Source: an uncultured Verrucomicrobiaceae bacterium
GTDB lineage: Bacteria; Pseudomonadota; Gammaproteobacteria; Pseudomonadales; CAMLJR01
Reading direction: 5' to 3'
NCBI GenBank assembly: GCA_964515735.1
Contig: CAZEVP010000001.1
Location: 14,749-78,748 of the forward strand
Length of the DNA: 64,000 nucleotides
Shown: positions 4,077 through 30,650 of the stretch, in pieces
Layout: each line of letters starts with the position of its first letter
Position numbering within the stretch: position 1 is the first letter of the stretch
Notes under the pieces: generated by a model
The model's database searches: none
Seen by the model: only the letters and a program-made list of their open reading frames with translations
Told to the model about the DNA's origin: nothing
Made by a program: the position numbers and the translations under genes

Positions 4077-4089
4077 CGTTCTTCTCCCA

Positions 4090-11176: not shown

Positions 11177-11313
11177 ATACCGAAAGACCTCCGCCCCGCC
11201 GACATCAGTCGGCGGCGGATGTCACCACCACGGCCGGCGCCGCATTCGGTACCGTGGCCTTTCCGATACCGACACCTTTTTCTCACTCCCTCCGTCATCG
11301 CCCGTCGCAGCAC

Positions 11314-12261: not shown

Positions 12262-12272
12262 TTACAACAAAA

Positions 12273-12398
12273 TTATCGGATTACTCCTTTCATGTAAGGT
12301 TCCACGGATTTATAGAAGAATGCCGTCCAGAACAGCACGAACAGGATGATCGAGATCACAACAGGGCGGCGATGAATCAGGTGATGCCGAGTTCCCAA
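12273..12398 (-). CDS. Candidate 41-codon small membrane protein (TTG start), unannotated by the ORF track
   Basis: Own translation: (M)GTRHHLIHRRPVVISIILFVLFWTAFFYKSVEPYMKGVIR*. It has one hydrophobic helix and fills the gap between the GT52 and pyruvyl-transferase genes. No strong SD seen. Confidence 0.2.
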   Translation of the reverse strand: MGTRHHLIHRRPVVISIILFVLFWTAFFYKSVEPYMKGVIR

Positions 12399-12410
12399 TA
12401 CCTGCTCATC

Positions 12411-14867: not shown

Positions 14868-15672
14868 ACAATGAACGGGCGAGTGCCCGGCACCACAGAC
14901 CGATCACGAATGGCATACCGCTGATGAAATAACGCCGCGCCAGACGGCCCGGTTCCTGTATCACACGGTGCAGCCATTCCAGCCCACTGCGCCGCATCCA
15001 CACGGGAGCACGCCGGATTTCACCAGCCACGAAACTGAAACTGACGCCGACGCCGAGATACCACCCACAGGGATGGCGCGACCGCAGCCCATGAATCAGA
15101 TTCTCCTGCTTCGGAGAGCCGAGACCGACGAAGACGATGGCGGGACGCCACTGGCGAAGCAGGTCATCGATCTTCTGCATCTCGATCTCATTCCGTTCGA
15201 AACCGAACGGCGGGCAGTGGGTGCGCACGCACCCGCCGGGCAGCCGATGGGCGTGCTCCAGCTTGCTGACCGCCGCTTCGGCGGAGCCGGGATTGCCACC
15301 GATCAGGGCCACGCGCAAACCGGCGCGGACAGCGCGGACATACAGGTCGACGAAAAGATCCGAACCCGCCAGCCGCCCCGGCAAGGGGTCGCGCTGCAGG
15401 CGACTGGCCCAGACGATCGGCGCGCCGTCCGGCGTGAACAGCGTCGCCCCGCTGACGGTGGCGCGAAACGCCGCATCCCGGTGCCAGCGGCGCAGGATGT
15501 CGACGTTCGGCGTGACGACCCAACCGCCTTCGCCACTCGCCGCCGAATCGACTATCCGTTTCGCCAGTTCGTCGGCCATGGCCGCGACGAATGGCAGACC
15601 ATCAACCTCGACCACCGGCAGGCCGAGAGGGCTCGACGACCACCCGCTGCCGATCTTCATGTCACCGCGCAT
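14794..15672 (-). CDS. WecG/TagA/CpsF-family glycosyltransferase (GT26)
   Basis: VVTPNVDILRR...TPDGAPIVWASRL...VFVGLGSPKQENLI...LGVGVSFSFVAGEIRRAP.WMRRSGLEWLHRVIQEP are typical GT26 blocks. Confidence 0.85.
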   Translation of the reverse strand: MRGDMKIGSGWSSSPLGLPVVEVDGLPFVAAMADELAKRIVDSAASGEGGWVVTPNVDILRRWHRDAAFRATVSGATLFTPDGAPIVWASRLQRDPLPGRLAGSDLFVDLYVRAVRAGLRVALIGGNPGSAEAAVSKLEHAHRLPGGCVRTHCPPFGFERNEIEMQKIDDLLRQWRPAIVFVGLGSPKQENLIHGLRSRHPCGWYLGVGVSFSFVAGEIRRAPVWMRRSGLEWLHRVIQEPGRLARRYFISGMPFVIGLWCRALARSLCGPRTGSGKSESLRDSRSGRRSVE

Positions 15673-15684
15673 CTCGCCCCTGTG

Positions 15685-16884
15685 CTACGTATCCCGTTTG
15701 GTCCGAATCCAGTCCACCTGCCGATGGAACAGGAATGCCGCATAGATCGATATCTTCCGCAGCAGCAGAATCGGCAGAATGGCGAGCTCGCTGACACCGA
15801 TGATGTCGCGCGCGAAGTTGGCCCAGGTGAGCAGTACCGCCAGCGTCAGTGCAATCAATCCAAGCATGGCCGTCGTCACGATCGCGATGCCGGCGCCAAG
15901 CAGCGCGACGACGATGCCAATAGCCGCGGCGGCGACCAGCCCGATCATCAACAGTGCCAGCGGTGGAATCATCAGATCGCAGGCCATGACCAGCTGCGAC
16001 CAGCGACGGCGCGACAGGCCCGCCGCGACCATCCGCGGCCCCACCGACAACAGCAGTTTCAAATGGCCATGCTCCCAGCGCCGGCGCTGGCTCCTGTCGC
16101 CCTCCGCGTTGTCGGGAAACACGCTGGAAACCTCGGCCATCTCGCAGAACAGTGGCGGCGCGCCCACCTCGCAGCTTCGCAATCCAAGCTGCACGTCCTC
16201 GGCGATATGGCCACTGGCGAACGGAACCCGCTCGACGACCGCCCATGGGAAAGCCATGCCGCTGCCGTAGAGTCCGCAAGGCATCGACATTCGAGCCATG
16301 CCACGCGGCCTCACCCAGTTCTTCAGGCGCATCGCGAACTCGGCCATTCGCGACGAGAGCTTCGCACCTGGCGCACGCATCAGGTATCGAGCCTGCACCG
16401 GCCTTCCGGTCATATGACTCCAGCTGGCGACGCAGGAAATTGCATCATCAGCGAGCGAGCAGTCGGCATCAATCACGACGACCACGTCGGGCGGGTCACC
16501 CTGCAGCGCGCGAATACCATGATCGAGCGCATAGCCCTTGCCTCGCAGCGATACATTTTCGCGCTCGCAGACTTCGGCACCGGCTGCACGCGCGATCTGC
16601 GCGGTCTCATCACTGCAGTTGTCGGCCACGACCAGCAGCCGATCGCCAATCTGCAGCTGCGCTTTCGCCTGCAGAAGCGTCGGCCGGATACCGGTCGCCT
16701 CGTTATGTGCCGGAATCAGAATCGCGATGCGCGGTCGTCGCGGTGGACGCGCTGGCGGCAGTGGAGACTTCAGCGCAGCCCCCACCTGAACCAGCAGAAA
16801 GAACGCCGCGAGCGACAGCAGCACCGTCGCGATCAACAGCGCCCATTGCAGCGCGACCAGAATGGCGCTCGCGATCTCAGCCAT
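15685..16884 (-). CDS. Membrane-embedded family 2 glycosyltransferase with Q-R-R-R-W motif (synthase-like topology)
   Basis: IAILIPAHNE...VVADNCSDET...VVVIDADC...QRRRWEHG. One N-terminal and several C-terminal TM helices. ATG at 16884 overlaps the GT4 stop (ATGGCTGA). Confidence 0.8.
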   Translation of the reverse strand: MAEIASAILVALQWALLIATVLLSLAAFFLLVQVGAALKSPLPPARPPRRPRIAILIPAHNEATGIRPTLLQAKAQLQIGDRLLVVADNCSDETAQIARAAGAEVCERENVSLRGKGYALDHGIRALQGDPPDVVVVIDADCSLADDAISCVASWSHMTGRPVQARYLMRAPGAKLSSRMAEFAMRLKNWVRPRGMARMSMPCGLYGSGMAFPWAVVERVPFASGHIAEDVQLGLRSCEVGAPPLFCEMAEVSSVFPDNAEGDRSQRRRWEHGHLKLLLSVGPRMVAAGLSRRRWSQLVMACDLMIPPLALLMIGLVAAAAIGIVVALLGAGIAIVTTAMLGLIALTLAVLLTWANFARDIIGVSELAILPILLLRKISIYAAFLFHRQVDWIRTKRDT

Positions 16885-18085
16885 GGACCGAGCGCCTGAA
16901 CAGAGCGGCAAGCTTGCCGCCCTCGGTATCGACATCGTGCCTCGCCACAACGTCGCGGTGCGCCACCTCTCCCATCTGTGTCAGACGTTCCGGTGGTGTG
17001 GCGAGACACTCGACCATCGCCTGCGCCATCGCATCGACATCGCCGGCCGGATAGAGCCAGCCCGACTCGCCGTGTCGAACCAGCTCCGGCACGCCGGCGA
17101 TCATCGTGCTGAGCACCGGCCGCTTCAGCGCCATCGCCTCCATCAGCACCACCGGCAACCCTTCGGCGAAACTCGCCAGAACCAGAGCGCGCGCCGCCAT
17201 GATCTCCGCCCTCACCTGATCGCTGCCTATCCAGCCGGTGATTCGAACCTTCTGCTGCAGCCCCAGTTCGCGAATCCGCTGCTCGACGACATCGCGCAAT
17301 TCGCCGTCGCCAGCCAGCACCAGTTCGAACTCGGCACCATGCCGCATCGCGACAGCCATAGCGTCGATCAACAGCAGATGCCCTTTCTGCGCCGACAAGC
17401 GGCCGACACAGACCAGCCGCTTCGCGGCCGGCGAGCCGACATCGCCGACCTCATGGAAATCGCGCTCGACGCCACAGTGAACTTCCATCACCTTTGGCCA
17501 GTGCTCTCCGCCCAGCCAGCGGTAGAGCTGACTGCGGCAGAAGGCGGTGATCGCGACGACGAAACGGGCGCGACGCATCTTCTCTCCCAGATGCAGGAAC
17601 TCGGGTTTGTCGAACTCCTCCGGGCCGTGCACGGTGAAGCTGTAGCCCGGCCCGCCGAGTGCATCGACCAGCATCGCGACCTCGGTCGCATTGGTGCCGA
17701 AGTGGGCGTGGACATGCGCGGTGCCACTCTCCTTCAACCAGAGCGCGACCTGGCACGCCTCGGCGAAATAGACCAGATGGAATGGCAGCGGCCGGTCGGA
17801 GCGAATCCCCACCCTGATCGCCAGCCACAACGCCTTCAATGCCGGCAACGGCGCATCGGCACCCACCCTGAACACCGCCGCCAGCAATCCGCCCGCTCCC
17901 CCCTTCAGCACATAGCGTGTGCGCGCCTTCTCCGCCGCATCCTGCGCATCCGGTGTCGGCTGATCCCAGCCGCGGAGGGCAATCCGCTCCACGTCGATGC
18001 CGTGGCGCTCCACGGCCTGAATCTCGCGGCGAATGAAGGTGTGGCTGACCTTGGGGTATTGATTGACGAGATAAGCGACCTTCAA
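16877..18085 (-). CDS. GT4-family glycosyltransferase (WcaL-like)
   Basis: MKVAYLVNQYPKVSHTFIRREI... N-terminus and a C-terminal EGLPVVLMEAMA E-x7-E-type block. Confidence 0.8.
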   Translation of the reverse strand: MKVAYLVNQYPKVSHTFIRREIQAVERHGIDVERIALRGWDQPTPDAQDAAEKARTRYVLKGGAGGLLAAVFRVGADAPLPALKALWLAIRVGIRSDRPLPFHLVYFAEACQVALWLKESGTAHVHAHFGTNATEVAMLVDALGGPGYSFTVHGPEEFDKPEFLHLGEKMRRARFVVAITAFCRSQLYRWLGGEHWPKVMEVHCGVERDFHEVGDVGSPAAKRLVCVGRLSAQKGHLLLIDAMAVAMRHGAEFELVLAGDGELRDVVEQRIRELGLQQKVRITGWIGSDQVRAEIMAARALVLASFAEGLPVVLMEAMALKRPVLSTMIAGVPELVRHGESGWLYPAGDVDAMAQAMVECLATPPERLTQMGEVAHRDVVARHDVDTEGGKLAALFRRSVHG

Positions 18086-18639
18086 TTACCCACTCCTTCA
18101 TCCATCGGCACCTCTGCTCGATCTGGCACGATGATCTTCGCGGGGTTACCAACGGCAGTGGCACCGGCCGGAACATCGTCGAGCACGACCGCCATCGCGC
18201 CAACACGGCATCCTTTACCGAGATGAATGCCGCCGATCACCTGCGCGTAGGCCCCGAGCTCGACGTCGTCATCGAGCACCGGACACGGACCATCCTCCAC
18301 GCGATTGCCAAGCGTCACGCCCTGCCGCAGCGTGCAACGCGCACCGACCCGGGTAGCGGGATTGACGAAGATATTGCCGAAGTGCCAGATGCGCAGCCCC
18401 GGTCCGAACACCGCCTCCTTCGGCAGACTGATACCGGTGACGGTCTCGACCAGGCGAAACAGCAACCAATAGATCTTCGTCAACGTCCTCTTCCGGAAAC
18501 CATCAGGCCGGGCGTCGATACGGCGACCAAATCGGTAGACCCAGATCGCGCACAACGATTGCTCCGACCGCCACGCGCGCACGCCACCATAGCGCGCGAG
18601 ATCCGCCTGCCAGTCGCTGTCCTGCTTTCCACTTCTCAT
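18082..18639 (-). CDS. Left-handed beta-helix (hexapeptide) O-acetyltransferase, serine-acetyltransferase-like
   Basis: Hexapeptide repeats (GPGLRIWHFGNIFVNPATRVGARCTLRQGVTLG...VELGAYAQVIGGIHLGKGCRVGAMAVV). 4-nt overlap with the upstream GT4 gene. Confidence 0.8.
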   Translation of the reverse strand: MRSGKQDSDWQADLARYGGVRAWRSEQSLCAIWVYRFGRRIDARPDGFRKRTLTKIYWLLFRLVETVTGISLPKEAVFGPGLRIWHFGNIFVNPATRVGARCTLRQGVTLGNRVEDGPCPVLDDDVELGAYAQVIGGIHLGKGCRVGAMAVVLDDVPAGATAVGNPAKIIVPDRAEVPMDEGVGN

Positions 18640-18695
18640 TCAAAGCTCTTCGCTGCTTCAGTCGTCAATGAAATTTCGCGTTGCCGTAACTGACG

Positions 18696-20087
18696 CTATG
18701 GAATCGCAAGCAACTCCCCTCCGACAGCCGATTCGCGGTCGCCGCCACCACTGGTCGCCGTAATGACGATGCCGGGTGTCCCCGCCGGCCAGACGATCTC
18801 GGCCGACTGCCCATCGGCCAGCTCTCTGCTGTCGGCCACCAACATGCCGCCGTTCCCGTACAGCTGCAGCCGCAACGTGCCGCCCCCTCGGGTATTGGCC
18901 AGCAACCGGTATCGACCACCTGACGCCATACTCGCCCACGGCATCTTCGAGATGTTGCGACCCGATTTGTTGACCATTACGACTCGATCGGGGGTCGGCG
19001 GAAAAACCACCGCCTGTGACCAGGTATCGAACCTCCCCGCCTTCGAGCCTTGCTGCAACATCCACGGTCCGCGCATCGACAACCGGTTCAGGTTCGACGC
19101 CATCTGCATCGGCCGCCCGTTGCCATCGATCCAGCCAGTGGTATCGACCACCTGCCGCAACCCGGCGCGAATCCTGTGCAGATCGTGCGCGACGACGGCA
19201 TTCCATCCCCCTTTGTGCAACCCGTAGCCACTGCCATTCTCGGCATAGATGACGAATGGCGTTCCGACATTCCGATCGACGACGTACGCACCATACAACT
19301 TCAGTGTCTCGGCTACTTTGCGCAAATCGGCATTCGCGATCGTTCGTGTGTCGAACCCGGGCGGCAACATCATCAACGCGCCCTGTGGAATCCTGCCGCT
19401 ATTGGTGGATGCGGCATTGCCGTCCGCCGACGTGGCCGGAAAGATGAAGGTGGGTTTGGCGCTCAGTGCATTTGCCGCCAGCGACATCGCCAGCGCATGA
19501 CGAAAGTGCGGCAACCCGTCGTCGATCTCGTGTTTACGGATGAGCCCGCCCATCGTTGGCACACCGGCCGCCCTTGATCCCTGAAAATAGTGCGCTGGCT
19601 CTCCCCAGCCACGACCATCGAGACGAGTCCATGCGTACTGCGTCGCACGCCATTTGCCATCGATCTTTCTGAGCTGAAAAAAGGAATGGATGATCTTCGC
19701 CTCGGGATCGACGATATCGGCATGACCATCGTTTCCAGCCGCTGGCGTCACGTTCGCCGGCCAGCGCGGTATGACGATCTCCGGCTGAAAGGTTTCGGCG
19801 TCCGGATTCCACAGCCCCTTCTTGCCCAGAGCGCCATGGACCGTCATTGGCGTGTCGTCGGGACCGGCGATGAATACGCCGGTGGAATAGTTCCCTTCGG
19901 CAACCGTAGGGAAGTACTGCGAGAGCGGAATCTCGAAGTTTCCGAATTTCGGGTCAACCGGGCGCGAATTCCACGGCGACGTTGCCGCGAACGGGTGAAA
20001 TGCCGTCCCCCATGCCGGCGGCTCCGCATTGGCGGCGATCGCCATCAAGCATCCCGCCATCAGAAGCATTTTCAATAGTCGATTCAC
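18696..20087 (-). CDS. Secreted protein of unknown function (~463 aa)
   Basis: GTG at 20087 preceded by GGAGGG. Signal peptide VNRLLKMLLMAGCLMAIAANA/EPP. No motif I can assign. The track ORF (to 20312) would overlap the MBOAT gene. Confidence 0.6.
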   Translation of the reverse strand: MNRLLKMLLMAGCLMAIAANAEPPAWGTAFHPFAATSPWNSRPVDPKFGNFEIPLSQYFPTVAEGNYSTGVFIAGPDDTPMTVHGALGKKGLWNPDAETFQPEIVIPRWPANVTPAAGNDGHADIVDPEAKIIHSFFQLRKIDGKWRATQYAWTRLDGRGWGEPAHYFQGSRAAGVPTMGGLIRKHEIDDGLPHFRHALAMSLAANALSAKPTFIFPATSADGNAASTNSGRIPQGALMMLPPGFDTRTIANADLRKVAETLKLYGAYVVDRNVGTPFVIYAENGSGYGLHKGGWNAVVAHDLHRIRAGLRQVVDTTGWIDGNGRPMQMASNLNRLSMRGPWMLQQGSKAGRFDTWSQAVVFPPTPDRVVMVNKSGRNISKMPWASMASGGRYRLLANTRGGGTLRLQLYGNGGMLVADSRELADGQSAEIVWPAGTPGIVITATSGGGDRESAVGGELLAIP

Positions 20088-20115
20088 GATAATCCCTCCA
20101 CCGCTACCAAAAGAT

Positions 20116-21537
20116 TCAGAAAGCGAAGTAGATGAATCCGCTTCCGCCCGATGAAATCGCCAACAGAAGATAGAAAACTGCTGCCAGGGACATACCACTG
20201 AGCAATGCCGGCGCCCGTGCGAAATACATCGCGATACCGGTTCCGGCACCGCGTCGCCAGAAGTGCAGAGCCAGCGCCGAAACGACCAGAAAAAAGCCAA
20301 GGACAGAGGCATCCGTCAGCAGCTGCTCTGGCCTGTCGGAAATCATCGCCTCGACATAGTGTCCTGCATCCTCCAATGAATCGGAGCGAAACAGGATTCT
20401 CGACCAGGCGACGAAGTTGAACATGTACAGCCACAACAGCACCTTTCCGGCCAGACCCGTATGTCCGTCACCAATTGGCTGGCCCGAGGCTCGAAACCGG
20501 CGTAAATACCGCTCGATGCAAACGGCGCTTCCATGCAGGAATCCGTAGACGACGAAGTTCCAGCCGGCGCCGTGCCATATGCCGATCGCCACGAAGGTGA
20601 TCAGTATGTTCAGATAGACATTCCCATGCTTCGATCCCCCAAGGCCGAAAAACAGATAGTCCCGGAAGAAGCTCGACATCGATATATGCCATCGCTGCCA
20701 GAACCGGGACACCGACAGCGAGGCATATGGAGACCGGAAGTTCTGCATCAGCTCAAAGCCGAATACCTTGGCCACACCACGCGCGATATCGGTATATCCG
20801 GACAGATCCATATAGATCTGCAGCGTGAACGCGTAAACGGCCAGCACCAGATAAACCGAAGAGAACTTCTCCGGATCGGCGAAGGCCGGATCGACCACAT
20901 GCTGCGCCAGAAGATCGGCGAAAACGATCTTCTTTATGAATCCACGGACGACGAGACAAAGCCCGGCCGTGAATCGATCACCGGAAACTTCGCCACCTCT
21001 GGCAATCTGCGGCAACAGATCGGTGGCCCGATTTATCGGCCCCGAGAGAAGCGATGGGAAGAAGGAGAGATAAAGCAGGAAGTCCATCAGGTTTCGGCAC
21101 GCCGGCAGCTTCCCGCGCCTCACGTCGATGACGTAGGAGAGTCCCTGGAAGGTATAAAAGGATATCCCGATTGGAGCGACGACCATGATCACATCGGAAT
21201 GGAGGTGCAGGGCACGCAGCAGGCTCTCCACCTGCTCGAGAAAGAAGCCGGAATACTTGAAATAGCCAATTGCCAACAGCGGCACCAGAACTGCCACCAC
21301 CAAGGCCGCCCGCTCTCGCCAGCCTCCCCTCCAGCGCTCGATCGCGATCGCGATGAAGAAATAGAAGAACGACATCGCCAGCAGCACGGCGAAGAATCGC
21401 TCGTCCAGCATCAGATAGAAGTACCAGGAGCCGAGCAGCAGCAGGATCTTTCGTGCCCGTGCGGATACCGGCAGCCCCCAGCAGAGCAACCAGAGCACCA
21501 GGGTGAATATCGCGAAACCGGAGGACTGAAAGCTCAT
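20116..21537 (-). CDS. MBOAT-family membrane O-acyltransferase (AlgI/DltB-like)
   Basis: 473 aa, polytopic. FWQRWHISMSSFFRDYLFFGLGGSKHG and conserved His block IGIWHGAGWNF. Confidence 0.9.
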   Translation of the reverse strand: MSFQSSGFAIFTLVLWLLCWGLPVSARARKILLLLGSWYFYLMLDERFFAVLLAMSFFYFFIAIAIERWRGGWRERAALVVAVLVPLLAIGYFKYSGFFLEQVESLLRALHLHSDVIMVVAPIGISFYTFQGLSYVIDVRRGKLPACRNLMDFLLYLSFFPSLLSGPINRATDLLPQIARGGEVSGDRFTAGLCLVVRGFIKKIVFADLLAQHVVDPAFADPEKFSSVYLVLAVYAFTLQIYMDLSGYTDIARGVAKVFGFELMQNFRSPYASLSVSRFWQRWHISMSSFFRDYLFFGLGGSKHGNVYLNILITFVAIGIWHGAGWNFVVYGFLHGSAVCIERYLRRFRASGQPIGDGHTGLAGKVLLWLYMFNFVAWSRILFRSDSLEDAGHYVEAMISDRPEQLLTDASVLGFFLVVSALALHFWRRGAGTGIAMYFARAPALLSGMSLAAVFYLLLAISSGGSGFIYFAF

Positions 21538-22547
21538 CCCCCCCTCCCGGCCAATCTCGACGACAGGATGACATCGGTGATCTTGTCACTGAGCAGCTCT
21601 TCACCACGCCGATTGAAATGGGTCGCATCCCCAAAGTAAGCGGTTCCCGAAGGCAACTCGCGCGCCACGTCGATCACGGAAACACCGAGATTTCCCGCAA
21701 CCCTGCGGATGGCATCGTTGTACAGGTCGTACGCCTCGTTCAGCTGAGCCATCGAAAGGCAGCTCGCATAGCCACGCACCGACGCCGACAACCGCCACTG
21801 CAGCTCCGGCTCCTGATTCGGCGAAAAGGCACGCCCACCGGTCATGACGATGACGTATCGCGAATAGGACTTCGCCTTCTCGATCAGCTCCGACAATGTG
21901 TTCTCGAACTGACTGGTATCGAACTCCTCGACCTTTCCCGATGCATGCATCGGGGCAGCGGGCCGGAAAGGCTCGGTCTTGCGTCGAATCATCCTGAACG
22001 ATACCCACCACTCCGGAAGCACCGAGCCATCCTCGACCCGTTGCGCCTGGCAGTAGTCGGAGACATCGTTGAAACCGGGATATATCAGGATGAAGTCCGG
22101 CTTCACCCTGCCTGCTATCCGCTCCAGCATTGCCAGCTGGTCGGCGATCCGATAGCCGGCGATACCGGCATTTATCGCTCGGTAACTGTCATTCATCCTT
22201 CGCGACAGCTTTTCCGCTACCAGATAGGAAAAGGTTTCTTCGTTGCTATCCGCCAGTTCGCCCATGACCGTGGAAGCGCCAATGAACAGAAGATGGCGAT
22301 CCGATCCCTTTTCTATCTCATCGGATCGAAGCCCGAGTGAATTGATGCGAAAGCCAGGCCGTGAATAGGCCGGGTTCAGCAGTTTCTGTCCCGACTCCTC
22401 GTCATTGATGTATTTGGTCTCGTTCAGCAGGATCGCGATCAAACCCTGACCGGTATTGGTGTAGAAGTAGATCTGCCCCGCCATCTCCACCAGTAGCACT
22501 ACCGAGAGGAAAACAACGACCGGCAAAATGAAATAGAGCCTTTTCAT
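21534..22547 (-). CDS. SGNH/GDSL-type hydrolase/acyltransferase partner of the MBOAT
   Basis: N-terminal TM anchor. Block I LLFIGASTVMG, block III ILIYPGFNDV, block V GDATHFN. ATGA overlaps with both neighbouring genes. Confidence 0.7.
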   Translation of the reverse strand: MKRLYFILPVVVFLSVVLLVEMAGQIYFYTNTGQGLIAILLNETKYINDEESGQKLLNPAYSRPGFRINSLGLRSDEIEKGSDRHLLFIGASTVMGELADSNEETFSYLVAEKLSRRMNDSYRAINAGIAGYRIADQLAMLERIAGRVKPDFILIYPGFNDVSDYCQAQRVEDGSVLPEWWVSFRMIRRKTEPFRPAAPMHASGKVEEFDTSQFENTLSELIEKAKSYSRYVIVMTGGRAFSPNQEPELQWRLSASVRGYASCLSMAQLNEAYDLYNDAIRRVAGNLGVSVIDVARELPSGTAYFGDATHFNRRGEELLSDKITDVILSSRLAGRGG

Positions 22548-23980
22548 GGTCGACCGACGATGCTCTTGCCATCATCGCTCCGTATGCGTTCTCCACACCG
22601 CTCCCTTGCTCTCTCCCTGACGAGGGCGACACCGGCTCCCAGCAGGAAAAATACATACCAGTTGTATGACAGATAACCCAGCATATTGTCCGACATGCTG
22701 ATGACCGCATACTGAACGACGATCAGGATCAGCACCAATGACAGCAGCCGATCATCTTTCCTGAGACTGAACAGGGATTTCCCTATTGCCAGCATCAACC
22801 CCACATAGGCGATCAACCCGAAGGCGCCCAGATTGAAGAACATTTCCACATAGACGTTGTGAGCGCCCGCGTTAACCTCTCCGCTCATCGAAAAGAACAC
22901 CGGAGAATAGAACGTGAAGGCGCCAACGCCATAGCCGAAAAGATAGCGGGAAGGCTCGATCCAGCGCAGGCCTTCGGTCCAGATCAGCTTCCGCCATGCG
23001 AAGGAGTTCAGTCTTGCATACTGGACGACCTCGTTACCCTGGCCGAGGTCCATCAGCCGCTCCTGCACACCCGGAATCATCAGTGCGATGACCGGAGCAA
23101 TGCAGATGTAGACGATATATTTTCTTTCGAAGATCAGCGCATAAATGGCGAACATCGTAAAGCAGGCCAGCCACGCGCTTCGGGTCTGCGTCATCAACAG
23201 AAGAAACATGACGATCAGGAAATAGGCCAATACCAACCGCCTCTGCCACGGCTCCCGAAAATAGCCGTCCGATTTGATCATGTAGAGCAGAACCATCGAA
23301 ATCGTGACCAGATAGAACGCGAATATGTTCGGGTGGGCAAAGGTACCGCTCAATCGCGATGAGCCGACGCCAACCACCGCCAGCTGGAACAGCCCGTATA
23401 AAACCGGAATGAACGACGAAGCCAGCGTGATGTTCAGGCACTGCCGGATTCCGCCATAGCGGCTGACATAGAAAAAGGCGGCGATGAAAACCGAAAAGTA
23501 GGAACAGACCGCCAGCAGGGAACGAAGCCCTGAAGATCGATCCGGTGCATAGAAAACGCCCGCGACAAATGACAGCAGGAGCATCCACCAGATGAACTGC
23601 TGCCTGATTGCCGCAAACCGCCGGCCTTCCAGCAGCAGTGAAACGACGATACCGATGATGGCGATGTTGATCAGGCCACCCAACCCGATCGAAATCCCTC
23701 CGATGCCGAACTTCGTGCTGTCGAACAACAGATCGCCCGCCGACCTGAACAGCAGAATCCCCGTCAGCAACAGGAACTTGTCGACGAAATATACCGTCAG
23801 TAGAACGATCACTGCCGGCAGAACCAGCAGTCGCCCGACGCTGCCATCCATCGCAACCACATAGAACGGCACGGCCATGCCGATGGCCAGCGCCAATCCG
23901 ACCGCCGCCAGCAACGGCAGCCGTCCTGCTGACCTCGCTCCGGCTGTGCGCTCCAGCAACGAACCTGCCGCCCTGATCAT
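22544..23980 (-). CDS. wzy: Wzy-type polymerase / O-antigen-ligase-family membrane protein
   Basis: 478 aa, >10 TM segments, central MTQTRSAWLA loop typical of the O-antigen ligase/polymerase domain. Confidence 0.7.
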   Translation of the reverse strand: MIRAAGSLLERTAGARSAGRLPLLAAVGLALAIGMAVPFYVVAMDGSVGRLLVLPAVIVLLTVYFVDKFLLLTGILLFRSAGDLLFDSTKFGIGGISIGLGGLINIAIIGIVVSLLLEGRRFAAIRQQFIWWMLLLSFVAGVFYAPDRSSGLRSLLAVCSYFSVFIAAFFYVSRYGGIRQCLNITLASSFIPVLYGLFQLAVVGVGSSRLSGTFAHPNIFAFYLVTISMVLLYMIKSDGYFREPWQRRLVLAYFLIVMFLLLMTQTRSAWLACFTMFAIYALIFERKYIVYICIAPVIALMIPGVQERLMDLGQGNEVVQYARLNSFAWRKLIWTEGLRWIEPSRYLFGYGVGAFTFYSPVFFSMSGEVNAGAHNVYVEMFFNLGAFGLIAYVGLMLAIGKSLFSLRKDDRLLSLVLILIVVQYAVISMSDNMLGYLSYNWYVFFLLGAGVALVRERARERCGERIRSDDGKSIVGRP

Positions 23981-24058
23981 TCACTGCCCCCCGTTCGGAG
24001 TTGTCGCATCACGCAACCCTCAGCGCGCCCTCGACACTCTCCAGCGTGCAACGACCCC

Positions 24059-24943
24059 TCATTCGATGAGCACACTTCCAATGGCCTTGATTCCACTCTC
24101 CTCGAACAACGACAGCAGCTTTCTCATGCTTTCGGACCGGCTTCGACCGCGGCGTGCCGCCACCAGCGCCGAACCGGCCCGCATGGCGATGATCTGCCCA
24201 TCCGAGCTTTCGGAAGCAGCCGGCGTATCGACGATGATGACGTCGAAGCTTCCATTCATCAGTCTCATGAAGCTGCCGAGCTCGCTTCTGGCCACCATCT
24301 CCTGCGGATTCGGTGGCAATGCGCCCGACGTGACGACGGACAGATCCAGCAGCGATGGAATACGGACGGTCGCCTCGACGATCGTCGACCTGCCGGCCAG
24401 CACTTCGGAAAGCCCACAGCGATTTTCGATGCCGAACAGTTCGTGCTGCCGCGGATGGCGCAGATCGGCATCGACGATCAGCGTCTTTTCACCAAGCTGG
24501 GAAAAAACAACGCCCAGGTTCGCAGCCAGCCACGAGCGCCCCTCACCCCTGTCCGGACTGACGATCGCGACCACCTTCTGCTCCGTCCCCTGCTGCATCC
24601 AGCGCAGCATCAGCCGGCTTCGCAGTGCACGCAAAGCCTCCACTTTCGCGGTGAATGGCTCGTAAGCAGCCATCACTGTGCTGCTGACCCTGCTTTCTCC
24701 ACGCCGGAGATACGGATATTCGAACTGTCTCGCCATGGCCAGGTCGATGTCTTCCCGGGAGAGAATCCCCAGATCGATTGCAGCCTCACCAAAGCGCAGG
24801 CCACTGCGCTGCTGGTGATTGACGACGAGCTCAGCCTCTTCTGCCGTCAGGCGGCCGGCATCGATCAGAATCGCTCCGATCGAACGCTCCTTGATGGCTA
24901 ATCGGCCACTCAACTTCCCTATCACATTGCTCATATTGTTCAT
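24059..24943 (-). CDS. Stand-alone BY-kinase-like P-loop ATPase (EpsG-type) with MshEN/T2SSE_N-like N-terminal domain
   Basis: Walker A-like VSPDRGEGRSW (Arg where Lys is expected), A' LIVDADLRHP, Walker B FDVIIVDTPA. N-terminus IGAILIDAGRLTAEEAELVVNHQ...RFGEAAIDLGILSREDIDLAMARQ. No Tyr in the last 40 residues. Confidence 0.8.
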   Translation of the reverse strand: MNNMSNVIGKLSGRLAIKERSIGAILIDAGRLTAEEAELVVNHQQRSGLRFGEAAIDLGILSREDIDLAMARQFEYPYLRRGESRVSSTVMAAYEPFTAKVEALRALRSRLMLRWMQQGTEQKVVAIVSPDRGEGRSWLAANLGVVFSQLGEKTLIVDADLRHPRQHELFGIENRCGLSEVLAGRSTIVEATVRIPSLLDLSVVTSGALPPNPQEMVARSELGSFMRLMNGSFDVIIVDTPAASESSDGQIIAMRAGSALVAARRGRSRSESMRKLLSLFEESGIKAIGSVLIE

Positions 24944-24977
24944 AAAACTCTCCTGACGGCGTCAGTCCGACGAGAAA

Positions 24978-26375
24978 TCAACCAATGGCCAGCTGCGCCT
25001 CGGCCCGGGCTCGCATCCGTCGAGACTTCCTGTCATCCCTCGGGATGACACCCAGCACCGGTACACCCGAAAACCTCTCCAGATCGTCCGTGCTGCGCAC
25101 CCGCTGATCGATCAGTTCGAGTATCAATGCCACACCTATTCCCAATACGATCCCGATGCCTACGGCAACCAGGAGATTGACAAGAATCTTCGGGCTGGAC
25201 GGGCTCAGGGGTACCGCGGCCTTGTTGAGTACGGCGATATTCGTCTGCTGCGTTTCACTTTCGAGACTGACCTGCGTCAACCGCTGGGCAACGAGATCGT
25301 AGGCGTGCTGCGCACTTCCCACATCGCGCTGAAGGACCTGTATCTGATCCCGCTGGGCACGCAGCCGAAGAATCTGATCCTTTTTCGCGTCGATCTCCGC
25401 GAGAATCTCCGCCACCCTTTTCTCGTTGACGCGTGCGGCGGTGTTGATCGATCGAACGATGCGCTGAGTCTCCAGGGCTATTTGCTGCTTGAGGGTCTCC
25501 AGCTGCGCCCGCTCATCGAGATACTGAGGATGGTTCCTGCCAAAACGGGACTCGAGCTGAACCAGATTCGCCTCCTGCCTGGCTACCGCCTCCTGAAGGT
25601 TTCTGATCAGTGGGCTCTCGATAACCTCCGGGAGGGATTCCGCCGACGACGAAGCCTGGCTCTGGCGGGAACTTATGTCGGCACGCTTTCCCTGAACCTC
25701 CGCCAGCTGGCTGTGCAAGCCCGACAGATGCGCCACCTCAATGTCCAGGCGCTCGTCATTGACAACGATGCCGTGTTCCTGCTGATAGCTGGAAAGCTTG
25801 CGTTGTGCCCGTTCGAGATTCTCGCGAAGCTCTTCCATGCGCTCCAGAAACCACTGCGCATATTTTCTGGCCGGCTCTACCTTCAACTCCAGACTGGTGT
25901 CGATATAGGCATCGGCGAACGCGTTGGCTATATTCGTGACCAGTTCCGGATCGGGGCCGGAGAAGCTGATACTGATCACGTTCGACTCACGCGATGGATT
26001 CACCTCCAGCCTGGTCTTCAATTGATTCGCTTTCCATACGATAAAATCGCCCTTCCCTTCCGATACCTCTCTCCACAGGCTCTGCTGCTCCGCTGATTGA
26101 TCCATCCTGAGGAGCCTGACCACTTTTTCGGCAACACTCCGGCTATTGATGATGTCGACCTGCGTGGCCATATAGCCCGGCAGGTACTGGGAGGGCATCA
26201 TCGCTCCAACCAACGGATCCGGCGTCTTTACATCGACAACCAGGGACGTAGTGGCCGTATAGCTCTTGCTGAGCAGGAAGCTGACGGCCAATGCCGCCCC
26301 GATGACCACAGCGAATACCAGGAAGGCCGACCTCCATCGCGCCATCAGTATCAGAAAGAGCTGCCGCAAACTCAT
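24978..26375 (-). CDS. Polysaccharide co-polymerase / chain-length determinant (Wzz/GumC-like, no fused kinase)
   Basis: N-terminal TM (AFLVFAVVIGAALAVSFLL), long coiled-coil periplasmic region, C-terminal TM (LVNLLVAVGIGIVLGIGVALILELI). ATG at 26375 preferred; the track ORF starts at 26423. Confidence 0.8.
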   Translation of the reverse strand: MSLRQLFLILMARWRSAFLVFAVVIGAALAVSFLLSKSYTATTSLVVDVKTPDPLVGAMMPSQYLPGYMATQVDIINSRSVAEKVVRLLRMDQSAEQQSLWREVSEGKGDFIVWKANQLKTRLEVNPSRESNVISISFSGPDPELVTNIANAFADAYIDTSLELKVEPARKYAQWFLERMEELRENLERAQRKLSSYQQEHGIVVNDERLDIEVAHLSGLHSQLAEVQGKRADISSRQSQASSSAESLPEVIESPLIRNLQEAVARQEANLVQLESRFGRNHPQYLDERAQLETLKQQIALETQRIVRSINTAARVNEKRVAEILAEIDAKKDQILRLRAQRDQIQVLQRDVGSAQHAYDLVAQRLTQVSLESETQQTNIAVLNKAAVPLSPSSPKILVNLLVAVGIGIVLGIGVALILELIDQRVRSTDDLERFSGVPVLGVIPRDDRKSRRMRARAEAQLAIG

Positions 26376-26512
26376 ATCCCGTTCCCCTGAATATCCTGGC
26401 GACCACTCGCAACCCGTCACCATTTGTTCAACAACTATCCGTGTAGCCGCTATTTACATAGCAACGACGATTCCAGCCCGAAGGCCTTCGAAACCCTTCT
26501 CTCTCGAACGGA

Positions 26513-27733
26513 TCACCACAGGTACTGGACCGAGGTTCTCCAGATATCGACGTCGTACTCACGCAGCGATATGTCGGATTCCCGCTGCTCGTACTGATAG
26601 GTGAGCTGCAGGCTCAGAAACTTGCGTGGAACATAGGTCAGGCCGCCACCGATGATGTCGGTGACATCGTCCTTGCTCACATCCGCAATGACACCGAAAC
26701 CGGGATCTCCGCCAAAACTGCGCTCGCGTCTTTCGAAACGGGCACCCAGTGTCAGCGCCGGTGTCAGAGACCAGGTCGGAGTCACCACCACGGCTTCGGT
26801 GAGCACGAAGTTGTCCACCAGGTCGCCCTCGGCGCCCAGTTCGCGCCGTACCATCAGGTTGAGCCCGACCGTTTCCGTCACCTTCCAGTCATAGGCCAGC
26901 CGTCCCACCACCCCCGAATAGTTACGCGCCGACAGGTTCGGATACTCGCGATCGGCCACCCCGATGTAGCCGGATATGCGACTCAACGCGGACAGCCTCC
27001 AGTCTCCACGCAGCTGGATATCCTGCTGCTCGTAATCGGTGTCCCGGGTGGTGACGTCGGTTTGATTCGGATAGGTACCGTCGAGATGAGATACCACCAG
27101 CGCCAGCTGGCTCAGAGTGGGAGTGCGGTAGGTCAGCTTCGCCTCGATGATCTCCTCGTCGTACTCCGACGCAGTCGACGCGTCGTCGCTGTAGCGACTG
27201 GTGATCATGACTGCCGCCGCACCGATCGACCATGCCGGATGGAAGGCGTAGTTGGCGTCCGCCGAATAGCGATGGAACGTATTGATGCTCTGCTCGAAAG
27301 TGCGCGAATCGGCGAAACTGCGCGAAGCCTCGGACTGGTTGGCAGCAATGACTCCCCACCAATGGTTGCCGAACGCCCACTGCCAGCTCCCTGAGCCGTT
27401 CACAGTGGTGAAATTCAGGTAATCGTTTTCCCGATACTCGTTGCGCGCCGCCAGGACCTCCGCCCGCAACCGTTGCAGGCCCAATGTCTTGTCGATGCGG
27501 ACATTGCCGATCAGCTGCATCAACGCATCGTCGCGTTGCTGGCCATCGGGCGGGTCGACATCGTCGGGCAGGCGAAACAGGTTGTCGTCATCGCTGTAGC
27601 CAACCTGCACGGAAGCGCTCAGCGTATCGGCTGCCTCCTGTTGCGCAGCGGCTTCGTGCTGCATTGCGAACAGACATGCGAGGAGAACGGTGCCCGCTGC
27701 CACCCGGCGCTCGGCCATCCGTGTCGACTCCAT
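26513..27733 (-). CDS. Outer-membrane beta-barrel protein of the EPS locus (EpsL-like)
   Basis: Signal peptide ...GTVLLACLFAMQHEAAAQQ, alternating beta-strand pattern, C-terminal ...WRTSVQYLW aromatic terminus. Start ambiguous between 27718 and 27838. Confidence 0.6.
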   Translation of the reverse strand: MESTRMAERRVAAGTVLLACLFAMQHEAAAQQEAADTLSASVQVGYSDDDNLFRLPDDVDPPDGQQRDDALMQLIGNVRIDKTLGLQRLRAEVLAARNEYRENDYLNFTTVNGSGSWQWAFGNHWWGVIAANQSEASRSFADSRTFEQSINTFHRYSADANYAFHPAWSIGAAAVMITSRYSDDASTASEYDEEIIEAKLTYRTPTLSQLALVVSHLDGTYPNQTDVTTRDTDYEQQDIQLRGDWRLSALSRISGYIGVADREYPNLSARNYSGVVGRLAYDWKVTETVGLNLMVRRELGAEGDLVDNFVLTEAVVVTPTWSLTPALTLGARFERRERSFGGDPGFGVIADVSKDDVTDIIGGGLTYVPRKFLSLQLTYQYEQRESDISLREYDVDIWRTSVQYLW

Positions 27734-27844
27734 ACCCATGCGTACTCCATACCCTGCCGTCATCGCTTCGATCCTGTTGTTGCATCCATCTCGTCCACGA
27801 TCTGCGCCATGCGCCCGGCTGGCGCTGAATCGGCCCATGGCTGA

Positions 27845-28651
27845 TCAGAACCATCGCTCCTTGACCACGAGAACATCTTCCGGATGGAGCACGCTATCAG
27901 GCCCGATGGAGACCTCCTTCTCGGCGCCGGTGCTGCCATCCCGCCGCTTCACCACCACCCTGCTGTCACTGCCGCGCGGAGTCAGGCCACCGCCAACGGA
28001 AATGGCGCGCGACAGCGTCATGCCTCGATCGAGGCGATAGACGCCGGGATTTCGCACCTCGCCGTAGATGTAGAACTTCGGCGCCTTCGGCACATGGATG
28101 GTGTCGCCGCCGTGGACCATCATGTTCTGCTGCGGATCACCGGCGAAAAGCGCCTCCAGATTGACCTCTTGGCGGCTGCCATCCTTGCGCATGATCGTGG
28201 CGGTATCGGCGGCGGAATCGTTGATGACGTCACCGGCCTCGGCGAGGAAGTCCAGCACACGGCTGGAGGCAGCCAACGCATATTTTCCGGGCCGGTGGAC
28301 CTGCCCGAGTACCGACACCTTCTGGCTCTCGTACTCGAGCACCAGCACGCTGACCTGCGGATCACGAATGAAGCCACCGGAGATCAACCGCTGTTTCAAC
28401 AGCGCGGCGACACCGGCTGGCGACTGTGCCGACACCAGAATTTCACCAACCAGAGGAAAGGAGATGCGACCGCTCTGGCTGACGCGAACTTCGGTGGCGA
28501 GATCGGGATATCCGAACACCGATATTCTCAACAGATCTCCCGCACCGAGTCTGAGGTCCTGTTCGTCAGCACCAGCCGGAACGACCAAGGCCATCAGCGC
28601 CACCATCAGAAACGATGCGAACACAGCCTGCCGTTTCACAGTGCATCTCAT
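27845..28651 (-). CDS. Periplasmic polysaccharide export protein (Wza/Poly_export + SLBB-like)
   Basis: Signal peptide. LGAGDLLRISVFGYPDL...VSQSGRISFPLVGEI..., and a C-terminal soluble-ligand-binding beta-grasp-like part. Confidence 0.8.
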   Translation of the reverse strand: MRCTVKRQAVFASFLMVALMALVVPAGADEQDLRLGAGDLLRISVFGYPDLATEVRVSQSGRISFPLVGEILVSAQSPAGVAALLKQRLISGGFIRDPQVSVLVLEYESQKVSVLGQVHRPGKYALAASSRVLDFLAEAGDVINDSAADTATIMRKDGSRQEVNLEALFAGDPQQNMMVHGGDTIHVPKAPKFYIYGEVRNPGVYRLDRGMTLSRAISVGGGLTPRGSDSRVVVKRRDGSTGAEKEVSIGPDSVLHPEDVLVVKERWF

Positions 28652-28774
28652 GATTCTCTCTGCTCTCCACCCTTGACCTCGACGATACGGCCGACATGAG
28701 GGACATGCCCCTCGTCATCATTGCCCGCGATTCATTTTAAATACTTTTCATTCACCGGATAGGCGACCTTTTCA

Positions 28775-30277
28775 TCAATAGACATCCTTGCTGAACAACG
28801 ATCGCGGCGTCTTCAGAAGAATGACCAGATCCAGCCAGAGCGACCAGTTATTGATGTACTGGATATCCAGCTCGACACGCCGCAGCATCTTGTCCAGCGT
28901 ATCGGTTTCACCTCGATACCCGCTGACCTGAGCCAGCCCGGTAATTCCCGGCTTTATGCGATGGCGCAACATATAAGAGGGAATCTGTCGTGAATAGAAA
29001 TCGTTGTGCTCGATGGCATGTGGCCTCGGTCCTACCAGAGACATTCGCCCCTGCAGTACGTTGAACAGCTGCGGAAGCTCATCGATGCTGGTTCGGCGAA
29101 TGAAACGTCCAATGCGCGTAACACGATTGTCATTCCGCTTCGCCTGCGAAACCCGCCTGTCGACATGCACTTTCATCGAACGAAACTTCCAGACCTCGAT
29201 GACACGGCCATCCCAGCCATGCCGGCTCTGCCGAAAGATGATCGGCCCCGGCGACGACTGCCACACCAGGAAAGCGATGGCCATCATCAGTGGACTGAGC
29301 GCCACCAACATCAGAGATGCGATGACCTTGTCGAAGATGCTCTTGAAGAGCGCTTTCGTCTCCGATGCCAGCGGCGACTCCGAAAGGGTTATCAGCGGCA
29401 GTCCGTTGAGTTCCTTCACCGAGTGGTTCAGCAACTGCATGGAGAAGATATCGGGGACCCACACCACATCCACCGTGGTGGAAGAGAGTGCGTCGTAGAT
29501 GCGTTCGATCTCCTGCGACCGTCCGATCGGAACGACGATATAGACACGGGATATTTCCCTCTCCACGACCACCTTCGCGAGGACATCTATATCACCGAGA
29601 AGAGGAACGCCGAGAGAGGAATCACTGTCGCCTTCGGCATCGGCTTCACCGATCATGCCGACGACTCGATCACTGATCCAGTTGTTGCGGTTCACGCTGG
29701 CCACCAACTCCTTCGCCAGCGGCCCCATACCCACCACCAATGCCTTTCGCATCGGAATCGCGTGCTGTCTTGCGCGTCTGTTCGCCATGTATGCGAGCTG
29801 ATAGATGGCGATCTGGCTCGCATAACCGAGCACAGACCAACCGAGAATCACGGCGCGCGAGAACTGTTCGCCGGTCTGGCTGAAAAAGATCGCGACAACC
29901 ACCACACCGACCAGCAGCAGCCAGGAGCGACCGATGCGAAGGCAGCCTCCCAGAAATCCGTTGAAACGCCGACAGATTCCTCGCCAGTTGTATATCGTCA
30001 ACTGACTGATGGCGATAATGACCGTCAGATAGCGGTAGTGCGACTGCAGCGTGCCGTCCCGCCAGATGGCGAGCCCGGCCAGCACGGCAACGGCGGCCAG
30101 CACGCTGACCATCAACTGCAGCTGTGCTGCCAGCGTGTCGCGATCCTGCAGCAGACGACGGGATCTCTTGCCGGCCACATGCACGTAAGCGAGTGGATCT
30201 ATTCGCTGGTGACTGTTCACCACAACCCCCTGGCCACACTTCCCGACAGAACTCTCACGCCAACATCCATTCGCCAC
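28775..30277 (-). CDS. Polyprenyl-phosphate sugar phosphotransferase (WbaP/EpsB-type priming enzyme)
   Basis: C-terminal bacterial sugar-transferase domain: RFIRRTSIDELPQLFNVLQGRMSLVGPRPH...KPGITGLAQVSGYRGE. N-terminal TM bundle. Confidence 0.88.
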   Translation of the reverse strand: MANGCWRESSVGKCGQGVVVNSHQRIDPLAYVHVAGKRSRRLLQDRDTLAAQLQLMVSVLAAVAVLAGLAIWRDGTLQSHYRYLTVIIAISQLTIYNWRGICRRFNGFLGGCLRIGRSWLLLVGVVVVAIFFSQTGEQFSRAVILGWSVLGYASQIAIYQLAYMANRRARQHAIPMRKALVVGMGPLAKELVASVNRNNWISDRVVGMIGEADAEGDSDSSLGVPLLGDIDVLAKVVVEREISRVYIVVPIGRSQEIERIYDALSSTTVDVVWVPDIFSMQLLNHSVKELNGLPLITLSESPLASETKALFKSIFDKVIASLMLVALSPLMMAIAFLVWQSSPGPIIFRQSRHGWDGRVIEVWKFRSMKVHVDRRVSQAKRNDNRVTRIGRFIRRTSIDELPQLFNVLQGRMSLVGPRPHAIEHNDFYSRQIPSYMLRHRIKPGITGLAQVSGYRGETDTLDKMLRRVELDIQYINNWSLWLDLVILLKTPRSLFSKDVY

Positions 30278-30650
30278 TGGTTGCGCATGTGGCTTCTGGC
30301 ACGGTTCATTGTCATGAAGGCGACTGGAGAATCCCCTTAACGACCAGACTCCATGCGACTAATCTGCCATGCAATCCCATGGCTTCTGATGCGGCACATT
30401 TTCAGTGTCAGGGAAAAGCTCATCGACAGAGCCGACGATGCATATTCTTCACTGACACCTTTGACTCGAGCTTACTGACAGGCAAATACAACTGGCGGGC
30501 AATACTACGCGGGGTACTGGTACTTATTTTTTCGATTGGGCTATCGAATAGGTTTTGCAGAGTTTAAAAACCAATGGCCGTCCGTGAATGAGAAATTCCT
30601 CTCAAATTCGAAAAACCGGAAGATATATATCGGTATCGGATTGGTTCGAA

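Follow-up and report, generated by a model that had tools for sequence, protein, structure and literature searches.

What does a protein with the fold of a tyrosine kinase contribute to an exopolysaccharide (EPS) locus when it lacks both the catalytic lysine and the tyrosines that are usually phosphorylated? This question is raised by epsG, a gene of an EPS cluster in the 64,000-nucleotide stretch of contig CAZEVP010000001.1 analyzed here (hereafter the window; Table 1). Its product, EpsG, joins an MshEN_N domain of the cyclic di-GMP (c-di-GMP) receptor type to a P-loop domain with the fold of bacterial tyrosine kinases (BY-kinases). The original prediction for this gene, made from the letters of the sequence, was that of a second-messenger-gated and possibly catalytically altered co-polymerase partner. 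Its description of an altered, nonclassical kinase partner holds up; the oddities on which it was based, however, are not peculiar to this gene, and the interpretation had in part been published before as a prediction. Overall, we moderately favor a reading in which EpsG is a phosphorylation-independent scaffold for the neighboring polysaccharide co-polymerase of class 2 (PCP-2), EpsF, acting as a stand-alone cytoplasmic partner in a Wzx/Wzy-type EPS locus; the protein probably still binds nucleotide and is probably gated by c-di-GMP.

EpsG and its family

The EpsG protein matches the NCBIfam model TIGR03029 (EpsG) with a score of 327 bits (cut-off 313.8), its residues 20–292 being covered by the 274-position model. 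In itself, epsG is thus a routine representative of a large family that is already annotated, and the N-terminal module belongs to the TIGR03029 family model itself. Two sets of homologues were compared. The close set consists of the 120 nearest homologues, at 50–62% identity, such that the closest EpsG sequence found has 62% identity at most; a nearly identical copy of the query accounts for one more entry. The wide set was taken from a full HMMER scan that covered 1.84 billion representatives of clusters (50% clustering) and returned 695 representatives at E ≤ 1e-30, and comprises the best 150 of these plus the query, or 151 sequences. The N-terminal module is present in all of the best 150 of the 695 representatives. 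Among 185,579 species representatives the best match reaches 56% identity in EpsG (47–56% across the 80 best listed), and our genome comparison covers 80 loci of genome species representatives, mostly from Rhodocyclales and Burkholderiales. The family as a whole amounts to some 700 clusters (50% identity, E ≤ 1e-30), chiefly from Betaproteobacteria of wastewater, soil and plant habitats.

The architecture of EpsG and its predicted binding of c-di-GMP were already published in 2016. Specifically, Wang et al. 2016 (PMC5013675) enter the combination MshEN_N–AAA_31 in their Supplementary Table 4 for EpsG of Methylobacillus sp., with an occurrence in beta- and gamma-proteobacteria, and a footnote and the Discussion of that paper take up EpsG as well. 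The M. flagellatus protein stands alongside NfrB in the predicted-binder column of its Supplementary Table 3. The Methylobacillus sp. EpsG and the EpsG of the window have in common their family, the architecture of MshEN_N plus BY-kinase fold, and the place of their genes after EpsF within a module of EpsE, EpsL, EpsF and EpsG. With respect to the features discussed in the next section, our literature search found no paper noting the Lys replacement or the absent Tyr tail in EpsG.

The family also contains natural single-chain fusions of 749–790 residues with the order Wzz-GNVR-(MshEN_N)-AAA_31 (P0139, P0174 and P0246; also P0198 and P0212). In effect, they are Wzc-like PCP-2a proteins with MshEN_N inserted ahead of the kinase-like domain; in P0246 the Walker A Lys is kept and motif 2 of the MshEN_N module is degenerate (GFL...H). 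In addition, the identical EpsG protein is found on 7 contigs of related sequencing runs (SRR16797977 to SRR16798010), and in one metagenome copy of epsG (protein P0001) the sole difference is G223S (codon 24275–24277).

A BY-kinase fold with an altered P-loop and no tyrosine tail

In terms of fold, the assignment of EpsG residues 95–294 to the BY-kinases is clear, with matches to CapB (E 4e-30), Etk (2.4e-29) and Wzc (2.5e-27). An AlphaFold2 (AF2) model of full EpsG has a predicted local distance difference test score (pLDDT) of 87.9 and a predicted template modeling score (pTM) of 0.82, and a Foldseek search with this model places CapAB, Etk and Wzc on top (3LA6, 3CIO and 2VED matched). Superposition of the model on the Wzc kinase domain (3LA6) gives a root-mean-square deviation (rmsd) of 1.3 Å over ~202 columns. 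Along with the catalytic-domain fold, EpsG shares with the canonical BY-kinases, namely Wzc and Etk of E. coli and CapB of S. aureus, the Walker A′ (hhhhDxDxR) and Walker B (hhhhDxxP) motifs and the EX2RX2R motif, through which the octamer of BY-kinases makes its interface (PMC9800525).

EpsG departs from Wzc, Etk and CapB in other respects. The Walker A consensus GxxxxGK[S/T] is replaced by SPDRGEGRS, with Arg in place of Lys; the C-terminal Tyr cluster is missing; and an extra MshEN_N domain is found at the N-terminus. Arg136 aligns with CapB Lys55 and Wzc Lys540, and the CapB K55M mutant chain has Met at this position. Upon re-translation, the P-loop and its CGC Arg codon proved exactly as first described, and the same was true of the intact Walker A′ motif (LIVDADLR) and Walker B motif (VIIVDTP) and of the lack of Tyr in the final 40 residues, the last 39 of which read AGSALVAARRGRSRSESMRKLLSLFEESGIKAIGSVLIE and are preceded by Arg. 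The alignment proposed with the original prediction reveals that the P-loop Lys replacement and the absent Tyr tail are both common to the EpsG family. Among the 120 close homologues, the sequence E-G-R-S is invariant (Arg136 in 120/120), and the chain ends directly behind the last β-strand, without a Tyr cluster.

In the wide set the catalytic Lys is replaced in 134 of the 151 representatives, the position being occupied by Arg in 96 sequences, Lys in 17, Ser in 10, Ala in 9, Cys in 7, Thr in 6, Val in 3, Asn in 2 and Gly in 1. This column undergoes at least 33 state changes on a neighbor-joining tree and ranks 109th in conservation out of 273 columns. By the same measure R108 ranks 1st (151/151 representatives), R105 6th (149/151), F51 10th, G23 14th, G52 15th and Q73 17th, and the Walker A′ and B residues D158, R162 and D239 are retained in 148, 143 and 138 of the 151 sequences, respectively. 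The last 15 residues never contain more than two Tyr, and a Tyr is present among the last three residues in 22 of the 151. The Walker A Lys column, which is more constrained than any other in a functional P-loop NTPase, is here free to vary, whereas the positions of the ring interface and of the MshEN contacts are not. This pattern is what marks a protein in which catalysis has been abandoned and assembly and the N-terminal function have been retained.

Within the close clade the picture is one of strict conservation, as Ser137, Asp158, Asp160, Arg162, Asp239 and a PPNPQE loop are (near-)invariant along with Arg136. The fixation of the Arg together with Ser137, Asp158, Asp160, Arg162 and Asp239 argues for continued nucleotide binding in this clade. 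Engineered Lys-to-Arg mutants of P-loop proteins, such as RecA K72R, typically bind ATP and do not hydrolyze it. Two further Arg residues are found in this region. Arg132 (24548–24550) is a family-typical second P-loop Arg, four residues ahead of Arg136 (SPxRGEGRS), and Arg165 (24449–24451) is found where Wzc has Tyr569, a residue in contact with the α-phosphate of ATP; the charge in the nucleotide pocket might be compensated by either one.

We also looked for the remaining parts of a phosphorylation cycle. A motif for low-molecular-weight protein tyrosine phosphatases (LMW-PTP, Wzb-type) was found neither in the window nor within 10 kb of epsG in the 80 related loci (0 in 1.36 Mb), which sets the EpsG locus apart from those of Wzc, Etk and CapB; our motif scans for phosphatases and for c-di-GMP enzymes operate at the level of regular expressions (regex), PHP-type phosphatases lying outside their scope. 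The cytoplasmic C-terminal tail of EpsF, as translated, likewise contains no Tyr. Taken together with the replaced Lys and the missing Tyr cluster, these observations bear out the initial claim that EpsG is not a classical tyrosine autokinase, a conclusion that is well supported at the level of sequence. Given its P-loop and tail, EpsG is probably misnamed as a 'tyrosine kinase' in the databases.

A different account of the same residues would have EpsG remain a working ATPase or kinase, though perhaps a slow one, that relies on Arg136, with MshEN_N as only a regulatory add-on. The Tyr targets would then lie outside a C-terminal cluster, at the internal conserved Tyr76, Tyr78 and Tyr94, at the single terminal Tyr of some homologues, or on other proteins. 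This account fits the (near-)invariant nucleotide-site residues and PPNPQE loop of the close clade, where Arg specifically, and no arbitrary residue, is fixed in all 120 sequences, and it can draw on the 17 representatives with Lys, on the 22 with a terminal Tyr and on a paper in which EpsG-type proteins are cited as autophosphorylating kinases (see below). Nonetheless, we judge it improbable. The terminal Tyr is not enriched among the Lys-keeping members (Fisher p = 0.28); in the wider family the Lys position may be Ser, Ala, Cys, Thr, Val, Asn or Gly, with the rest of the protein kept; no LMW-PTP motif accompanies the 80 loci; and Arg165 stands at the place of Wzc Tyr569. Moreover, exchange of the Walker A Lys for Arg or Met abolishes hydrolysis, and Wzc K540M and CapB K55M are the inactive forms employed in structural work.

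The N-terminal MshEN_N module

The N-terminal part of EpsG was compared with MshEN domains by sequence, by profile and by predicted fold. In a single-sequence search, residues 1–111 match PilF GSPII of T. thermophilus (E 3e-11) and MshEN of V. cholerae (5HTL, E 1.8e-4). With a profile of 19 N-termini the values become 2.2e-20 for PilF GSPII, the best stretch falling on GSPII-C, and 2.9e-8 for MshEN. All 19 N-termini match NF053729 ('c-di-GMP_motif, MshE-related'; best E 7.3e-13), and 14 of the 19 match the NfrB model. A model of residues 1–100 consists of four helices (pLDDT 87–93), and its best 13 Foldseek matches in the Protein Data Bank (PDB) are all MshE or PilF GSPII; their E-values, 0.02 or higher, are weak because the domain is short. 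Superposition on most of the c-di-GMP-bound MshE/PilF GSPII entries gives rmsd values of 1.1–1.4 Å over 53–56 residues.

EpsG carries the MshEN_N subdomain only, without the T2SSE_N1 half, in the form of two 24-residue motifs and a 5-residue spacer (a 53-residue unit). The two segments had been described as consecutive; both are indeed present, but they are separated by the spacer QRSGL, as the definition of MshEN requires. The similarity to MshEN noted in the original prediction is not spurious, being recovered by sequence, profile, NF053729 and fold matches. On the strength of the sequence comparisons and the models, the EpsG N-terminus is a genuine MshEN_N four-helix module, and its homology in sequence and fold is solid.

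With respect to ligand recognition, positions 1, 2, 3, 17, 21 and 24 of the MshE motif touch the ligand and positions 6, 7, 11 and 12 form the core. The Gln residues make ligand contacts only, and the backbone of the Gly residues reads the Hoogsteen edge of the guanine. In EpsG motif 2 the contact residues R, F, G, I, M and Q are all acceptable. The earlier statement that this motif fits fully is accurate for the relaxed motif of the MshEN authors, where 11 of 11 positions agree, but not for their strict consensus, from which it departs conservatively at positions 2, 6, 17 and 21, where F, A, I and M stand for L, L/V/I, L and L, respectively. In motif 1 the contact residues are S (instead of R/K/L), I, G, A, V and Q, with Arg at core position 11, and the relaxed motif is broken by the Ser at position 1 and the Arg at position 11. 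The replacement of Arg by Ser in motif 1 had been recognized from the outset, and it falls on motif position 1.

Conservation of these positions is pronounced. Both MshEN-type motifs are highly conserved in the 120 close homologues, and across the family G23, L26, G30 and Q44 of motif 1 are conserved and F51, G52, L58 and Q73 of motif 2 near-invariant. Specifically, Gln44 is found in 131/151 and Gln73 in 146/151 representatives, Gly23 and Gly52 occur in 147/151, and the combination of Gly3 and Gln24 in both motifs is kept in 126/151, irrespective of the P-loop residue; the members with Lys have MshEN motif scores equal to those of the others. On this sequence evidence, we consider binding of c-di-GMP by the EpsG MshEN_N domain fairly probable.

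Ligand gating or docking

A number of observations weigh against a noncatalytic, c-di-GMP-gated EpsG. Of the two profile searches suggested for this protein at the outset, the one for EpsG (TIGR03029) exceeds its cut-off, but Pfam T2SSE_N (PF05157) gives no match to EpsG, even at E ≤ 1. NF053729 scores 35.2 bits against the full protein of the window and 37.5 bits against residues 1–100, slightly below the cut-off of 38. In motif 1, position 1 is Ser, with a conserved Arg one residue before, and position 11 is a family-conserved Arg/Lys. A basic residue at position 11 is found in two nonbinders, XpsE (I19R, one of eight changes) and Dgeo ABF44566_III, in which F48K in motif 2 is blamed for the lost c-di-GMP binding. 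In favor of binding, position 1 is known to tolerate K, L, P and M. Ala37 and Val41 of EpsG are the equivalents of MshE L25A and L29V; binding by L29V is 4-fold weaker, and with L25A the ligand still produces a thermal shift of 9 degrees, which indicates that binding is retained.

The genomic surroundings and the literature add to these points. Within the window, regex matches for GGDEF, EAL and HD-GYP lie in spurious frames only, and the scans of the window and of the 80 loci place no diguanylate cyclase (DGC) or phosphodiesterase (PDE) gene near epsG; the 1.36 Mb around the 80 homologues hold one GGDEF and two HD-GYP-like motifs. These scans thus provide no 'local signaling' partner. The Walker A′ motif, the Walker B motif and Ser137 are strongly selected in the close clade, which leaves room for residual Arg-based catalysis. 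Finally, the one functional study of EpsF and EpsG (Ayabe-Chujo et al. 2012) is cited in another paper as having reported that EpsG-type proteins are autophosphorylating kinases; our literature search found no binding, ATPase or phosphorylation measurements for EpsG.

Part of this evidence would equally be expected if the MshEN_N module bound no ligand and served as a docking or structural domain that holds EpsG on EpsF, on Wzy or at the membrane, with no direct role for c-di-GMP. Analogues for such a role are the nonbinding N-domains of XpsE and GspE, which dock on GspL, and the departures of motif 1 at positions 1 and 11 are those of nonbinders. M. flagellatus EpsG has His for the motif-1 Gln, Supplementary Table 4 of Wang et al. 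cautions that some entries have no recognizable binding motif (PMC5013675), and PilF GSPII-A, which is among the closest single-sequence PDB matches, does not bind c-di-GMP. The lack of linked DGC/PDE genes points the same way. We nonetheless regard a purely docking role as unlikely. Conservation of the ligand-only residues Gln44 and Gln73 far exceeds that of the catalytic Lys position, and Gly23 and Gly52, which would read the Hoogsteen edge, are nearly always retained. The best PDB match of the profile is the binder GSPII-C, EpsG shares the predicted-binder column of Wang et al. with NfrB, later shown to be controlled by c-di-GMP, and one MshEN_N domain with four substitutions, positions 1 and 11 included, binds at 2.6 µM.

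Comparison with known systems

The scaffold reading of EpsG finds parallels among PCP-2 proteins with separate partners. S. aureus CapA and CapB form a split pair of PCP-2 and cytoplasmic partner, as do EpsF and EpsG. EcpK of M. xanthus and HfsB of C. crescentus are, like EpsG, stand-alone BY-kinase-fold partners of a kinase-less PCP-2 and have no Tyr tail. A phosphorylation-independent scaffold role has been proposed for both of these BY pseudokinases (Blöcher et al. 2025; PMC12004946), to which we liken EpsG on the basis of their descriptions. That paper leaves open what drives the assembly cycle and does not mention EpsG, MshEN or c-di-GMP. The pair studied here shows the features by which BY pseudokinases and their PCP-2 partners have been defined in print; EpsG has a BY-kinase fold, a Lys-to-Arg replacement and no tail, and EpsF has Wzz and GNVR domains only. 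GumC has also been termed a 'pseudo-BY-kinase' in the literature.

There are differences as well. All three Walker motifs are missing from EcpK, whereas in EpsG the Walker A′ and B motifs and the greater part of the P-loop are retained, so that nucleotide binding may persist. An MshEN_N domain is present in EpsG and is not reported for EcpK or HfsB. Our literature search found no paper that joins the idea of a BY-pseudokinase scaffold with that of an MshEN c-di-GMP receptor.

With regard to the module itself, V. cholerae MshE and T. thermophilus PilF GSPII-B and GSPII-C have the same two 24-residue motifs, 5-residue spacer and four-helix bundle as EpsG, with Gly3 and Gln24 in both motifs. The EpsG domain, a predicted binder, is fused to a BY-kinase-fold domain and those of MshE and PilF to a T2SSE ATPase; in motif 1, EpsG differs from them at position 1, which is Ser, and at position 11, which is Arg or Lys. 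A further parallel is provided by E. coli NfrB, a glycosyltransferase with a C-terminal MshEN domain, in which an MshEN-type module is likewise placed on exopolysaccharide machinery, and for which control by c-di-GMP has been demonstrated in experiments (PMC8669469). NfrB is a synthase-type GT2 enzyme, however; EpsG, as part of a Wzx/Wzy-type pathway, is no polymer-synthesis enzyme.

The EPS locus and other features of the window

The coordinates of epsG, its motifs and its neighbors are collected in Table 1. The epsG reading frame begins with ATG, preceded 8 nt upstream by a GGAG Shine-Dalgarno sequence, and 34 nt separate the stop codon of epsF from this start. The start of EpsF is probably Met17 of the longest open reading frame (ORF); in metagenome copies EpsF is called at 465 residues. 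The order EpsE-EpsF-EpsG is conserved across the 80 related loci, with EpsF directly upstream of EpsG. Exosortase B (XrtB) follows epsG directly in 47 of 75 related loci. The locus of the window is without XrtB and has instead a set of Wzy_C, SGNH and MBOAT proteins (20116–23980, minus strand); a tblastn search with two XrtB sequences gave no match across the 64 kb, the best E being 0.57. The XrtB/EpsH PEP-CTERM-type context associated with EpsG is therefore absent here, this being a matter of context and not a sequence criterion.

Beyond the Wzy_C protein, the cluster continues with an SGNH hydrolase, an MBOAT acyltransferase, glycosyltransferases and a flippase to ~12.4 kb, all on the minus strand. 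EpsL lies between EpsE and EpsF, unlike in most related loci. Two ORFs of the cluster are without assignment: 18696–20312 (minus strand, 538 residues) has no Pfam or NCBIfam match, and 11314–12261 (minus strand, 315 residues) has no match in a Pfam scan. The G+C content of the EPS cluster (11300–30300) is 59.3%, compared with 63.5% for the whole window.

Table 1. Positions in the window of epsG, its sequence motifs and the neighboring EPS genes.
Feature	Coordinates	Strand	Details
WcaJ-type initiating phosphoglycosyl transferase	28775..30277	-	TIGR03023, 468.4 bits (cut-off 410.75)
epsE-like outer-membrane polysaccharide export (OPX) exporter	27845..28651	-	TIGR03028, 243.4 bits, below cut-off of 262.65; Poly_export and SLBB domains
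epsL, outer-membrane beta-barrel	26513..27838	-	TIGR03014, 305.8 bits (cut-off 275)
epsF, PCP-2 transmembrane chain-length determinant	24978..26375	-	TIGR03017, 546.7 bits (cut-off 422.75)
epsG	24059..24943	-	294 residues; MshEN_N domain followed by BY-kinase-fold P-loop domain; TIGR03029 match
MshEN motif 1	24812..24883	-	Residues 21-44, SIGAILIDAGRLTAEEAELVVNHQ; aligned to MshE residues 9-32
Inter-motif spacer QRSGL	24797..24811	-	Residues 45-49; 5 residues, length as in MshEN definition
MshEN motif 2	24725..24796	-	Residues 50-73, RFGEAAIDLGILSREDIDLAMARQ; relaxed motif matched 11/11
EX2RX2R oligomerization motif EALRALR	24620..24640	-	Residues 102-108; from translation
Variant Walker A SPDRGEGRS	24533..24559	-	Arg136 codon CGC at 24536-24538, replacing catalytic Lys
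Walker A′ LIVDADLR	24458..24481	-	From re-translation
Walker B VIIVDTP	24221..24241	-	From re-translation
Wzy_C-family membrane protein, candidate polymerase	22544..23980	-	Directly after epsG; PF04932, E 4.3e-20

Outside the EPS genes, a flagellar block (1108–7535, minus strand) adjoins the cluster and encodes a FliA-type sigma factor, a FleN/FlhG-like ParA ATPase, FlhF, FlhA and FlhB. Between this block and the EPS cluster lies an ORF of 1105 residues with a transglycosylase domain (7615–10932, plus strand), which is overlapped by an antisense ORF of 884 residues without a family match (8113–10767). On the other side of the EPS cluster, three paralogous thiamine-pyrophosphate enzymes are encoded at 36276–38003 (plus), 40583–42331 (minus) and 50441–52144 (plus). 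Their surroundings include an aldehyde dehydrogenase, a Rieske oxygenase alpha subunit, a flavin monooxygenase-like protein and an IclR regulator, and the region looks like a catabolic island.

A model for EpsG and its implications

In the mechanism that we propose for the scaffold reading, EpsG would dock on the cytoplasmic C-terminal tail of EpsF, as CapB does on CapA and EcpK on EpsV, and would assemble EpsF into an octameric ring by means of its EX2RX2R motif, a ring needed for polymerization and export. It would do so as a scaffold, without a cycle of Tyr phosphorylation and dephosphorylation, and its Arg-containing P-loop would probably hold a nucleotide with little or no hydrolysis. Binding of c-di-GMP to MshEN_N would supply the on/off input, in place of the phosphorylation used by Wzc and CapB, and the growth and export of EPS chains could in this way be coupled post-translationally to the cellular level of c-di-GMP. 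As a generalization, we tentatively suggest, as a possibility that falls short of being probable, that c-di-GMP on the fused MshEN_N domain replaces the Tyr phosphorylation cycle as the switch for assembly and disassembly of the EpsF ring across the EpsG family.

Among synthase-type polysaccharide machines, post-translational activation by c-di-GMP is established, for BcsA via PilZ and for NfrB via MshEN. To our knowledge, there is no equivalent c-di-GMP receptor within a Wzx/Wzy-type co-polymerase. As read from sequence, the notion that the EpsG family consists of c-di-GMP-gated BY pseudokinases is attractive and testable, and it is unproven. If true, it would mean that a Wzx/Wzy-dependent exopolysaccharide pathway is under direct post-translational control by a second messenger. 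BY pseudokinases have been recognized only recently, and what drives the assembly cycles of their partners is a question that the EpsG family could answer; if the proposed gating is correct, it would explain how the partners of BY pseudokinases can be cycled when no phosphorylation takes place.

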